From Octopus vulgaris (lineage: Eukaryota): 64,000 bases of DNA. Both the position numbers and the translations under genes were made by a program. Location: contig OX597843.1 of NCBI GenBank assembly GCA_951406725.2, positions 1,240,001 to 1,304,000 on the forward strand, given 5' to 3'. This document shows positions 10,401-51,248 of the stretch, one piece after another (the first letter of the stretch is position 1; each line of letters opens with the position of its first letter). The notes beneath the pieces are model-generated. The model saw only the letters and a program-made list of their open reading frames with translations, was not told the origin of the DNA and ran no database searches.

Positions 10401-10629
10401 TGTTTCTTTATTGCCCACAAGGGGCCAAACATAGAGGGGACAAACAAGGACAGACAAATGGATTAAGTCGATTACATTGACCCCAGTGCGTAACTGGTAC
10501 TTAATTTATCGACCCCGAAAGGATGAAAGGCAAAGTCGACCTCGGCGGAATTTGAACTCAGAACGCAATGACCGCAATACCGCTAAGCATTTCGCCTGGT
10601 GTGCTAACGTTTCTGCCAGCTTTCCGCCT
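10401..10629 (-). mobile_element. SINE family C (Tx1-like 3' tail)
   Basis: Head GCTGGCAGAAACGTTAGC, B-box-like GAGTTCAAATTCC, tail GCCCCTTGTGGGCAATAAAGAAA; TSD TCATATCT. Confidence 0.85.
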
Positions 10630-10949
10630 TATCATATCTTTGTCATATCTTCAGGTTATTGTATACATGTGTGTTTGTGTGCATGTGGATGTCTGTTTAT
10701 GAGGCACAGAGATGACTGTGTGGTTAAAAAGTTTGCTTCCAAACCAAGTGTTTTCAGCTTCTTCCCATTGTGAGGCACCTTGGGCAAGTGTCTTCTGCTA
10801 CAGACATAGATCTACTAAAACCTTGTGAGTGGATGTGGTAGGCCAAAAGTGAAAAGAAGCCTAAATTGAAATGTGTTCAGTTGGTGGTGGTGGTGAGTAC
10901 TTTTCCTGTTAATAAATTCATACCTTTGAAGTAGTCTGGAATATGAGAT

Positions 10950-11137
10950 ACCTATTTCTTTATTACCCACAAGGGGCTAAACATAAAAGGGACAAACAAG
11001 GACAGACATAGGTATTAAGTCGATTACATCGACCCCAGTGCGTAACTGGTACTTAATTTATCGACCCCGAAGGGATGAAAGGCAAAGTCAACCTCGGCAG
11101 AATTTGAACTCACATTCCACCAAGGTCGACTTTGCCT
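10950..11137 (-). mobile_element. SINE family C, 5'-truncated with inverted 5' segment
   Basis: Tail near 10955, body to ~11112, then an inverted copy of ATTCCACCAAGGTCGACTTTGCC; TSD TATGAGAT. Confidence 0.8.
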
Positions 11138-11367
11138 TATGAGATGATACCTTGAGCAATAATATACTGTTGTTGACATTTCCTTGTTATTATGACCACT
11201 TTCTTCATGTTCAAACACTTGTGTGATATAAAAATGAAGAGTGTCTGGCCATTAAAACCAGTTCCCTTATGTGAGTTACTAACTACAAGACCAGACATGC
11301 ATAATACCTATATGAAATTATTTGCTTTCCAATGGGGAGATTTGTATAATCCGTGATGCAGCATGGA

Positions 11368-11559
11368 TTTTTGTCAATGAACAGGTTGCGGTCTCAAAGC
11401 GCTGAAAATATTTTGACAAATTAAACTTAAATGTTGAAGTGAATCAAACAGCTTTTGTGTGTTTCTTAAATGGCTTACAAACACCTTCCACGCTGCAATT
11501 GTTTTCGTTCCAGCACACAATCTCAGATCAAATCACTTGCTATGCAAGTACATCTCCGA
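11368..11559 (+). repeat. Second, more degenerate copy of the hammerhead-bearing ~190-bp repeat
   Basis: Reverse-complement match to 2618-2807; the motif reads TTTGTCA ATGAACA GGTTGCG...GCGCT GAAA ATAT TT TGACAAA. Confidence 0.65.
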
Positions 11560-11814
11560 GATTTGTATAATATTTTGAGAAAAAGTAGCAAAATCTTCCC
11601 CCAAATTTACCTTGCTCAAGGAAACTGATGTTAGAAGTGTGATGAAATGGAGTGTTTTAATTTCTTTTTGGTTTCTCTCTTGGAGATTGAAATGGTTCGA
11701 AAATGAGAATACACATCAAATGAAAGATGTAGAGGCAGGGAGGATGGAGAGTGATGGTGTGTCAACTCTGGCATCACATAAAACTCTCTTGATCTATTCT
11801 TTTTTTCTTTTATT

Positions 11815-12213
11815 CTTGTACTTGTTTCAGTCATTTGACTGCGGCCATGCTGGAGCACCGCCTTTTTTAGTCGAGCAAATCGACCCCAGGACTTATTCTT
11901 TGTAAGCCTAGTACTTATTCTATTGGTCTCTTTTGTCGAACTGCTAAGTAACGGGGACGTAAACATATCAGCATCGGTTGTTAAGCTATGTTGGGGGGAC
12001 AAACACAGACACACAAACATATACACACATACATATATATACATATATACGACGGGCTTCTTTCAGTTTCTGTCTACCAGATCCACTCACAAGGCTTTGG
12101 TCAGCCCAAGGCTATAGTAGAAGACACTTACCCAAGGTGCCGCGCAGTGGGACTGAACCCGGAACCATGTGGTTAGTAAGCAAGCTACTTACCACACAGC
12201 TACTCCTACGCCT
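11815..12213 (-). mobile_element. SINE family A
   Basis: Full-length copy. Confidence 0.9.
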
Positions 12214-47478: not shown

Positions 47479-47859
47479 GAAGCACTCCGTCGGTTACGAC
47501 GACGAGGGTTCGGGTTGATCCGAATCAACGGAACAGCCTGCTCGTGAAATTAACGTGTAAGTGGCTGAGCACTCCACAGACACGTGCACCCTTAACGTAG
47601 TTCTCGGGGATATTCAGCGTGACACAGAGAGTGACAAGACCGGCCCTTTGCAATACAGGTACAACAGAAACAGGAAGTAAGAGTGAGAGAAAGTTGTGGT
47701 GAAAGAGTACAGCAGGGATCACCACCATCCCCTGCCGGAGCCTCGTGGAGCTTTAGGTGTTTTCGCTCAATAAACACTCACAACGCCCGGTCTGTGAGTC
47801 GAAACCGCGATCCTATGACCGCGAGTCCGCTGCCCTAACCACTGGGCCATTGCGCCTCC
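47479..47859 (-). mobile_element. SINE family D
   Basis: Full-length copy. Confidence 0.9.
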
Positions 47860-47861
47860 AA

Positions 47862-48274
47862 ACACATATACATATATATATATATATATATATATACATA
47901 CATATATATATATATACATACATATATATATATATACATACATACATACATACATACATACATACATACATACATACATACATATATACATACATATATA
48001 TACATATATATACATATATATACATATATATATATATATATATATACATATATATATATATATATATATATATATATATATATATATATATATATATATA
48101 TATATATATATATATATATATATATATATATATATATATATATATATATATATATATATATATATATATATATATATATAATATATATATATATACATAT
48201 ATACATATATATATATATACATATATATATATATATATATATATATATATATATATATATATATATATATATAT
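47862..48274. repeat. (TA)n/(TACA)n microsatellite, about 410 bp
   Basis: Direct observation. Confidence 0.95.
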
Positions 48275-48775
48275 CTCAGTGAAGTTTATTCACTGATCAC
48301 CAAAATTAGAAATATTTAATTTCTAAATATCCTAGAGAGATATAAGCGGTGGTGGAACGATAGACCAGTTGTATATTGTCAACTTAACAACAGATGGACA
48401 TACACACTCGCGTTGGCCCAAGCGCATTTTCTCGAAATGACTACGGCGAAGCTTCGATTGGGAGGCACAATACACAGCATTAAAAATGTTTCCCTAAGTA
48501 ACACTTTTCAGATATCCTGCCGTGTCGTGACATCGAACAGTTCCCGATCGGATCAGACCGGAAAGAGAACGCACAAACCTCCTGTACCATCTGAGATTCC
48601 CACCTATTTGCCTGAACTTGGTGGACATACTGAATTTATGCCGTCTCTCCCGGCCGGATCGGCGGAAGATCGAATTTGGTAACGATTTCCTCATTCGTCT
48701 CGGCGAGGTTTATGACCCTCGCTATCGCTCGTACGAGTGCATAATAACATAACAGAAAAAAAACCCCTTAAAAGT

Positions 48776-49078
48776 TGTAAGCCCAGTACTTATTCTATCG
48801 GTCTCTTTTGCCGAACCGCAAAGTGACGGGGACATAAACACACCAGCATCGGTTGTCAAGCAATGCTAGGGGAACAAACACAGACACACACATATATACA
48901 TATATATACATATATACGACTGGCTTCTTTCAGTTTCGTCTACCAAATCCACTCACAAGGCTTTGGTCGGCCCGAGCCAATAGTAGAAGACACTTGCCCA
49001 AGATGCCACGCAGTGGGACTGAGCCTGGAGCCATGTGGTTGGTGATCAAGCTACTTACCACACAGCCACTCCGGCGCC
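48776..49078 (-). mobile_element. SINE family A, 3'-truncated
   Basis: Head and body without the tail. Confidence 0.8.
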
Positions 49079-49224
49079 TACTGTAAATTTCGGGCCTTGT
49101 GCCTAGAGTAGAAAATAATGTGTGTGTGATTGCGTGTGCGCATGTATCTGTACTGCATGGCTGTGTCAGTGTGTCCGTCCCGTTGATTTGATCAAAGCCT
49201 GCCTTTCTATGCTATGAGGATGAC

Positions 49225-51248
49225 ATCTCTGTGTATGTGTGTTCGTTCCGTAGACAAAGCATCAACCGTGCTCTGTGTTCGTGTGTTCGTTCCGTCTACA
49301 TAGCATCAACCTCGCTCTGTCTGTGTTCGTGTGTTCGTTCCGTCTACATTGCATCAACCTCGCTCTGCCTGTGTTCATGTGTTCGTTCCGTCTACATAGC
49401 ATCAACCGCGCTCTGTCTGTGTTCGTGTGTTCGTTCCGTAGACATAGCATCAACCGCGCTCTGTGTATGTGTGTTCGTTCCGTCTACATAGCATCAACCT
49501 CGCTCTGTCTGTGTTCGTGTGTTCGTTCCGTCTACATAGCATCAACCGCGCTCTGTGTATGTGTGTTCGTTCCGTCTACATAGCATCAACCTCGCTCTGT
49601 CTGTGTACGTGTGTTCGTTCCGTGTACATAGCACCAACCTCGCTCTGTCTGTGTTCGTGTGTTCGTTCCGTCTGCATAGCATCTACCTCGCTCTGTCTGT
49701 GTACGTGTGTTCGTTCCGTTTACATAGCATCAACCTCGCTCTGTGTACGTGTGTTCGTTCCGTTTACATAGCATCAACCTCGCTCTGTGTACGTGTGTTC
49801 GTTCCGTTTACATAGCATCAACCTCGCTCTGTGTACGTGTGTTCGTTCCGTTTACATAGCATCAACCTCGCTCTGTGTACGTGTGTTCGTTCCGTTTACA
49901 TAGCATCAACCTCGCTCTGTGTACGTGTGTTCGTTCCGTTTACATAGCATCAACCTCGATCTGTGTACGTGTGTTCGTTCCGTTTACATAGGATCAACCT
50001 CGCTCTGTGTACGTGTGTGCGTTCCGTTTACATAGCATCAACCTCGCTCTGTGTACGTGTGTTCGTTCCGTTTACATAGCATCAACCTCGCTCAGTGTAC
50101 GTGTGTTCGTTCCGTTTAAATAGGATCAACCTCGCTCTGTGTACGTGTGTTCGTTCCGTTTACATAGCATCAACCTCGCTCTGTGTACGTGTGTTCGTTC
50201 CGTTTACATAGCATCAACCTCGCTCTGTGTACGTGTGTTCGTTCCGTTTACATAGCATCAACCTCGCTCTGTGTACGTGTGTTCGTGCCGTTTACATAGC
50301 ATCAACCTCGCTCTGTGTACGTGTGTGCGTTCCGTAGACATAGCATCAACCTCGCTCTGTGTACGTGTGTTCGTTCCGTTTACATAGCATCAACCTCGCT
50401 CTGTGTACGTGTGTTCGTTCCGTAGACATAGCATCAACCTCGCTCTGTGTACGTGTGTTCGTTCCGTAGACATAGCATCAACCTCGCTCTGTGTACGTGT
50501 GTTCGTTCCGTTTACATAGCATCAACCTCGCTCTGTGTACGTGTGTTCGTTCCGTAGACATAGCATCAACCTCGCTCTGTGTACGTGTGTTCGTTCCGTC
50601 TACATAGCATCAACCTCGCTCTGTGTACGTGTGTTCGTTCCGTAGACATAGCATCAACCTCGCTCTGTGTACGTGTGTTCGTTCCGTAGACATAGCATCA
50701 ACCTCGCTCTGTGTACGTGTGTTCGTTCCGTAGACATAGCATCAACTTCGCTCTGTGTATGTGTGTTCGTTCTGTAGACATGGCATCTACCTTGCTCTGT
50801 GTACGTGTGTTCGTTCCGTAGACATAGCATCAACCTCGCTCTGTGTACGTGTGTTCGTTCCGTAGACATAGCATCAACCTCGCTCTGTGTACGTGTGTGC
50901 GTTCCGTAGACATAGCATCAACCTCGCTCTGTGTACGTGTGTTCGTTCCGTAGACATAGCATCAACCTCGCTCTGTGTACGTGTGTTCGTTCCGTAGACA
51001 TAGCATCAACCTCGCTCTGTGTACGTGTGTTCGTTCCGTAGACATAGCATCAACCTCGCTCTGTGTACGTGTGTTCGTTCTGTTTACATAGCATCAACCT
51101 CGCTCTGTGTACGTGTGTGCGTTCCGTTTACATAGCCTCAACCTCGCTCTGTGTAAGTGTGTGCGTTCCGTAGACATAGCATCAACCTCGCTCTGTGTAC
51201 GTGTGTTCGTTCTGTTTACATAGCATCAACCTCGCTCTGTGTACGTGT
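49225..51248. repeat. Satellite array, left part (44-bp monomer; 44/48 mix at the edge)
   Basis: Monomer CTCTGTGTACGTGTGTTCGTTCCGTAGACATAGCATCAACCTCG. Confidence 0.97.

Follow-up and report, generated by a model that had tools for sequence, protein, structure and literature searches.

A 64-kb stretch of the Octopus vulgaris genome (contig OX597843.1, positions 1,240,001 to 1,304,000; hereafter the window, out of a 2.8-Gb genome) holds six copies of a short interspersed element (SINE C) with target-site duplications (TSDs) and one Tx1-like long interspersed element (LINE, family A), and raises the question of what chooses the landing sites of a SINE and a LINE that end in similar 3' tails. A first-pass annotation had merged the junctions of both elements into one motif, ANRTAY, and had proposed that a single semi-specific endonuclease made the dispersed SINE insertions as well as that of the LINE into a satellite. 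The shared motif is a register error. We lean towards a reading in which SINE C and the LINE have real but different preferences, with two factors acting on the SINE site: a Tx1-group endonuclease that is borrowed, and the annealing of read-through RNA to the nicked DNA.

Neither element ends in poly(A). Both close with AATAA(A)GAAA/TAAAA plus two bases, and the tail of SINE C is of Tx1 type. SINE C copies were taken from 1.2 Mb in 120 stretches (110 over 30 chromosomes and 10 adjoining the window), with 60 further copies chosen by exact head match on C1; of the 95 that had both head and tail, 72 gave a TSD call and 23 did not. The TSD started two bases past AAAGAAA in 38 of the 72 calls and at +1 or 0 in 14 more (where A or TA in the flank still fits the same nick position); in 20 other Tx1-like copies, which gave 11 TSD calls, the +2 start was seen 8 times. 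The element end is therefore AAAGAAAYA, and the leading A of ANRTAY, formerly read as a target base, is its last base.

For the target logo, 55 pre-insertion sites outside the window were left after removal of the 23 copies without a TSD call, nine that were off-register or too far from the head, five window copies and three simple repeats. The SINE C site reads Y^(G/T/A)(G/A)TA(T): position -1 is C or T in 41/55 (p = 3.6e-4) and A in only 10/55 (background 31%), +1 is G in 24, T in 19, A in 10 and C in 2, and the following positions are purine (50/55), T (46/55), A (46/55) and T (31/55). NRTAY occurs at 30/55 sites against a background of 4.3%, far above chance; YNRTAY is found in 23, GGTA in 15, TATA in 12 and the full ANRTAY in 5. 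As this logo is read from the host-side (5') TSD copy, i.e., from the empty site, the preference of SINE C is real, and in this respect the first-pass annotation holds. TSDs are 9-33 bp long (median 15), and no motif was seen at the second nick of the 55 sites.

The LINE is selective too, at another sequence. Among its 29 best 3' ends outside the window, 25 lie at GAAC^ACATGGAGGAAA or a one-base variant, bearing out the view that it is sequence-selective, and an unranked pattern search gave 176 LINE-type tails, of which the first 100 listed (C1-C12) were classified by hand: 65 at ACATGG-type sites, 11 each at other sites that start with AC and at sites that start with ATT, and 13 elsewhere. 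One sequence type thus takes more than 20% of family A flanks, in line with Kojima's rule. NRTAY follows 5/100 of these tails, about background (hand count), and ACAYG occurs at 0/55 SINE C sites and after 0/100 SINE C tails (the first listed of 89,824 pattern matches, with junctions counted by hand).

The TSD of family A is about 12 bp, and the same 12-mer precedes all 29 full-length heads, upstream of which lie host DNA ending in TTTGAAC (6), the LINE's own tail (6), tails of other elements (16) and one sequence that the script left unclassified. The host repeat measures ~1.0-1.2 kb, has Helitron-like ends and includes a stretch resembling open reading frame 1 (ORF1). It has the features of a non-autonomous Helitron (5' TC, 3' CTRR after a short hairpin, insertion between A and T): among 30 empty loci, the 3' hairpin-CTAG end was followed by T in 22 and the 5' end motif was present in 20. 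Altogether, 68 exact empty target sites were found. Over 22 copies, divergence is 0.2% between the LINEs and 5-7% between their host flanks, a gap showing that the insertions were independent, one by one; this gap and the empty sites rule out that a single LINE hitch-hiked inside an amplifying Helitron. What is shown, then, is repeated insertion of the LINE at a single base, which lies in a captured ORF1-like fragment within a small, Helitron-like repeat. The elements upstream of the heads match ORF1 as far as the tail and give no match to ORF2, which suggests ORF1-only elements. Stacked at the 12-bp site of the LINE are elements of at least three other types, in which ORF1-like sequence extends to a Tx1 tail (16/29 heads; L033-L059). 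Two further observations concern the flanks of the LINE: ATTCCAGTCT follows 6/100 listed LINE-type tails (hand count) and also lies ~300 bp downstream in the same Helitron-like host (L002 flank), a possible second site, and two copies, L003 and L004, have as their 3' flank the head (ACATGGCCCC) of a different tRNA-like repeat and, ~500 bp on, a tRNA-like gene.

The window copy of family A (51249..56362, minus strand) sits in a 44-bp satellite, with 45 monomers to its left (49227..51248) and 167 to its right (56363..64000, continuing ~2 kb beyond the window, L169). Its tail at 51249 is followed by satellite sequence, ACACGTAC, and ACGTAC does follow the tail as first noted. This ACGTAC, however, starts at +3 of the LINE target, and the family register reads GAAC^ACACG. 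With both strands counted, the two satellite blocks contain GAACACAYG 159 times and YNRTAY 3 times. Insertion into the satellite is rare, at a sequence close to the site of the family itself, GAAC^ACAYG; targeting of the satellite is ruled out, with 1/30 best 3' ends and 0/100 listed tails in it. The apparent TSD of 25 bp (minus strand; 3' copy 51224..51248, 5' copy 56363-56387) starts with ACACG after GAAC and is not provable inside a tandem array. No SINE tail is present in the ~212 satellite monomers of the window.

SINE C itself is short, interspersed, present in more than 100 copies (12,926 exact head 31-mers and the 89,824 tail matches in genome-wide pattern searches) and flanked by variable TSDs, as a SINE should be. 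It consists of a 47-bp head and one or more 184-bp units starting with GGTATTTCG; two to five units were found in 20/72 arrays. Its own preferred site, C^GGTATTTCG, thus lies 47 bp into the element, and the boundary C^GGTAT is the best match to the logo. In L240, a SINE C has inserted at the internal site of an older copy, with a 20-bp TSD, and a second self-site in the head, C^AGAAACG, was used in five cases of the locus scan and gave 1,998 pattern matches. Among the first 100 listed tails, ~55 continue into another unit (hand count), where AGGTAT is the unit-to-unit junction. The first-pass annotation had conceded that its idea would fall if AGRTAT belonged to the SINE tail and was absent from empty sites, and half of this has come true: AGGTAT is the SINE's own junction and its A is tail, but GGTA/TATA-type sequence does stand at the empty sites. 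Arrays of a head plus n units would result if one copy inserted into another and were then transcribed from the new head across the remaining unit of the host copy. The body of SINE C has been hit by SINE C on the reverse strand as well, at T^GGTACTTA (L065, L143, L372).

All six window copies have visible TSDs as annotated, five of them perfect (10-14 bp) and one with a 3-bp indel. Three single-unit copies lie at 10401..10628 (minus strand; tail end AAAGAAACA, TSD GATATGACAAAG at 10389-10400 and 10638-10649), 14801..15032 (minus; GGTATTTTTAT at 14790-14800 and 15033-15043) and 15596..15826 (plus; AGTATTGATG at 15587-15596 and 15827-15836). A trimer at 35140..35730 (plus), i.e., the 47-bp head and three 184-bp units joined at GGTATTTCG, is enclosed by one TSD, GATATATCTATC (35126-35137 and 35731-35742), and a copy with an internal deletion lies at 47236..47431 (minus; GGTATCTTCAGCTA at 47222-47235 and 47435-47448). 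The 5'-truncated copy at 10953..11112 (minus) has an imperfect TSD starting with GGTATC, its left copy from 11151 (read by eye), and on its 5' side a short inverted SINE piece (11113-11137) that resembles a 5' inversion. The six junction hexamers reported earlier are all in the sequence (AGATAT at 10401, AGGTAT at 10953, AGGTAT at 14801, AAGTAT at 15826, AGATAT at 35730 and AGGTAT at 47236), although two of the positions given, 15597 and 35139, are heads. The window is odd in one respect: A stands at -1 in 6/6 of its copies against 10/55 elsewhere (Fisher p = 1.4e-4), as it does in one neighbouring copy, L166, and only ~0.04 such all-A windows are expected among 1026 windows sampled from this genome.

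What then sets the SINE C site? In the joint reading that we favor, the reverse transcriptase would bind the shared 3' stem-loop and start two bases past AATAAAGAAA, the endonuclease would nick the bottom strand at a step that places a pyrimidine at -1, and the first 4-5 target bases would be screened by annealing to the RNA past the tail, presumably GGUAU in most lineages and AGAAA in the GGGCA-tail lineage. A pyrimidine at -1 cannot arise by pairing and so must come from the nick; for positions +1 to +5, either the enzyme or annealing to RNA past the tail could be responsible. At +1 and +2, the bias towards purines would be expected if rG:dC and rG:dT pairs are tolerated. In 85 terminal ends, target class goes with tail variant (permutation p = 0.006): an AG start follows the GGGCAA tail in 6/15 copies against 2/59 (p = 6e-4, a contrast picked out after the fact), and the GGGCA tail occurs at AGAA(A/T)CG array junctions in 89/100 against 8/55 at GGTATTT junctions (hand counts). 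This association of tail, target and junction fits pairing; it also fits different partner LINEs for each lineage.

Several points weigh against the joint reading. With T at +1 (19/55, mostly TATA), the end of the primer would not match GGUAU. The link between tail and target was drawn after the fact on 6/15 copies, and different partner LINEs at different times fit it equally well, and the array junction counts are not independent, arrays being copied from masters. No LINE family targeting GGTA/TATA turned up by tblastn of 1.2 Mb and three family searches, nor did any with GGTA/TATA as main target in a zf-RVT search (30 loci and 20 longer stretches). Finally, the six window copies with A at -1 have no explanation beyond chance and after-the-fact selection; a local cause may exist. 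A further step, target memory in the RNA, by which a fixed start of reverse transcription and read-through of these Tx1-tailed elements into their own target would give each lineage a short guide to its last landing site, we regard as rather unlikely. If true, related endonucleases would be steered to different sites, and SINE C lineages would propagate their GGTAT or AGAAA preference and build their own landing pads.

The alternative that survives best is that SINE C lineages were copied, with no role for pairing, by one Tx1 family or several, outside the sample and perhaps extinct, whose endonucleases recognize Y^GGTAT, Y^TATAT or Y^AGAAA, the internal self-insertion sites being simply the best matches inside the SINE. 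We consider this possible, though less probable than the joint action of enzyme and RNA. Apart from the pyrimidine at -1, which pairing could not give, it draws support from the variety of targets among octopus Tx1-like families. Tails ending in AATAAAGAAA plus two bases recur in other such families with other targets: one is at TATC in 30/30 loci, nearly all (ATCT)n, families C and D are at (TC)n and (ATT)n in most of the matches listed, and further targets are GGAAGCGACACC and GAAATTCGG sites. The Tx1L endonuclease is reported to be specific in vitro, with a hairpin loop tied to target choice (PMC1950540; here and below, the sources cited are drawn on in part). That loop is nearly constant among the sampled Tx1-like families, whose endonucleases differ in other surface loops. 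Moreover, GATAY follows ten LINE-type tails, and the two examined both lie at C^GATAY: L392, which is 83% identical in DNA and belongs to a sister subfamily, has a 17-bp TSD at C^GATATAT, and L391, a 33-bp tail, has one of 16 bp at C^GATAC. Against this enzyme-only explanation, no family of the kind was found among ~50 zf-RVT-bearing loci, and ORF1-like elements whose tail end is the SINE's AATAAAGAAATA sit at the ACATGG site (4/29 heads). The latter finding means that the end of a tail alone does not assign a partner.

The window LINE family shares a 3' tail with SINE C (30/45 terminal bases; another family, L308, matches 35/45) and does not share its target. A relative of this family, not family A itself, overlaps the SINE logo in a minority of copies, and of all the observations this one comes closest to the original proposal. 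Family E, at mixed sites, has a tail identical to that of SINE C over ~25 bases and was rejected as sole partner, with NRTAY in 0/17 flanks (hand count). No non-SINE tail was evident before unit starts either: 154 of 243 starts followed the head, 72 a SINE tail and 17 other sequence without an evident LINE tail. The weaker claim, that some Tx1-group enzyme mobilizes SINE C, survives. Sister subfamilies (L318, L319, L321), with 94% amino acid identity to ORF2 of the window LINE, have inserted into a single different repeat at positions 8-20 bp apart, i.e., region-specifically and not base-specifically.

The original proposal, in which the endonuclease of the window LINE reads ANRTAY and made both the SINE and the satellite insertions, now appears highly improbable. 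It had in its favor ANRTAY at 6/6 window SINE sites, ACGTAC or ACATAC 201 times in the satellite, the tail match over 30/45 bases and GATAY after 5/100 listed LINE-type tails. Yet ANRTAY is found at only 5/55 sites elsewhere, the LINE register displaces ACGTAC to +3, the LINE goes to ACATGG-type sites in 65/100 listed tails and to the satellite in none, and the SINE is neither at ACAYG nor in the satellite. The only classifiable GATAY copy belongs to the sister subfamily, 83% identical, and LINE copies (0.2% apart) are far younger than SINE C copies, which are ~89% identical to the window reference. It is equally hard to credit that there is no target choice, AGRTAT being leftover SINE read-through and the arrays arising by unequal recombination of tail with internal GGTAT, for although ~55/100 listed tails continue into another unit and unequal recombination between TSDs has been proposed for bivalve SINE arrays (PMC11481361), the motif is present in the 5' TSD copy and hence in host DNA, -1 is depleted of the A that a tail would supply, and the L240 self-insertion has its own TSD. 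Recombination may still lengthen the arrays.

In several respects the pair formed by SINE C and the LINE works like known systems of the Tx1-Mar/SINEU and Tx1L-in-Tx1D kind. In crocodilians, Tx1-Mar LINEs target a DNA transposon, and SINEU was assigned to them by target preference (Kojima 2015, PMC4494074); here too, Tx1-group LINEs sit in a DNA transposon and stack in tandem, and independence was shown against hitch-hiking. Unlike in Tx1-Mar/SINEU, as far as the consulted part of that study goes, the sampled LINE and SINE C differ in target, the head of SINE C looks tRNA-like and not derived from U1/U2, SINE C carries its own target, and the host repeat has Helitron-like instead of Mariner ends. 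As with Tx1L in Tx1D of Xenopus (PMC4494074, PMC1950540), an APE-type (apurinic/apyrimidinic) endonuclease is directed to one fixed base in another mobile element; unlike what these excerpts describe for Tx1L, the LINE here targets an ORF1-like fragment that was captured in a Helitron-like repeat, and the satellite is only an off-target. The microsatellite-targeting sister families recall Kibi at (TC)n and Koshi at (TTC)n (PMC4494074).

For L1, primer-template pairing (snap-velcro) has been described, in which about four terminal primer bases pairing with the RNA favor matching sites (PMC3649969), and primer-RNA pairing has been proposed for SART1Bm and R1Bm (PMC7265360). SINE C would differ from these, as portrayed in the portions drawn on, in that the pairing sequence would be read-through past a non-poly(A) tail and would vary between lineages. 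The TSD1-(SINE)n-TSD1 arrays of the blood clam (PMC11481361) resemble the SINE C multimers inside one TSD, but the SINE C units, compared with what the extract shows, are headless and start exactly at the preferred site of the SINE. The repeats of the window have an octopus-like look, in agreement with PMC13282606, where 13 recently active L1-Tx1 families are listed. Neither octopus Tx1 targets nor a SINE C logo were found in the literature searched, Repbase and the supplements of PMC13282606 being outside its scope and possibly holding them.

These results imply that, where a genome holds many Tx1-like families, elements with a common 3' tail need not have a common target. They also provide a quantified logo for a SINE with ~90,000 near-exact tails, one that would account for how its arrays form. 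With tail variant, array junction and dispersed target linked, SINE C lends itself to a natural test of the shares that enzyme and RNA-DNA pairing have in non-LTR (non-long terminal repeat) target choice, a question that bears on retrotransposon-based gene insertion.

The LINE fits the Tx1 clade (L1-Tx1), judged by its domain order and target specificity. The window copy is ~140 bp short at its 5' end relative to other copies and has the tail GCCCCTTGTGGGTAATAATAAAACA. ORF2 (51495..54890, minus strand) is open throughout, with 1131 aa from the first ATG, and its Pfam matches (PF03372, PF00078, PF13966) correspond to an N-terminal APE endonuclease, a reverse transcriptase and a zf-RVT, with no RNase H, as expected; the endonuclease matches L1-EN structures (E 9e-10 to 1e-7). 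A protein search gave no close named relative among 25 matches, the sole named one being a fungal 'Transposon TX1 uncharacterized 149 kDa protein' (26% identity), and an NCBIfam search added nothing. ORF1 (55335..56279, minus strand; 314 aa from the first ATG) has no Pfam match and, by eye, a C-terminal CCHC-like knuckle. Within 54905-56279, ORF1 stops after 314 aa and a 179-aa frame then continues; the same region is 48 to at least 377 aa long in other LINE copies, variable lengths indicating that frameshifts are common in homopolymer runs, some of which may be assembly errors.

As to the identity of SINE C, ARAGORN found no tRNA in it and Rfam neither a tRNA match nor any family. By eye, its head holds A and B box-like motifs, and it presumably resembles SINEs with Nin or Deu domains. 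Ohshima and Okada reportedly described the octopus tRNA-derived SINEs OK, OR1 and OR2 in 1994; SINE C is likewise abundant, seemingly tRNA-like and from octopus, a likeness by description only. No name for SINE C could be taken from the portions consulted of PMC4758252, PMC5786205 and PMC3531059.

Some minor features of the window complete the picture. The repeat at 47150-47235 that hosts the SINE C copy at 47236 is the 3' flank of another Tx1-like family (L304, L310), 3 bp away. It contains CTGATGA...GAAAC, which we assume to be a hammerhead-like core, and Rfam gave no match in this stretch. Exons at 37882-40829 presumably encode an RBM39/Caper-like splicing factor, judging from the resemblance of their translation. 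A perfect tandem repeat of 33 bp, with 10 copies that are 100% identical and open in several frames, lies at 3645-3976.

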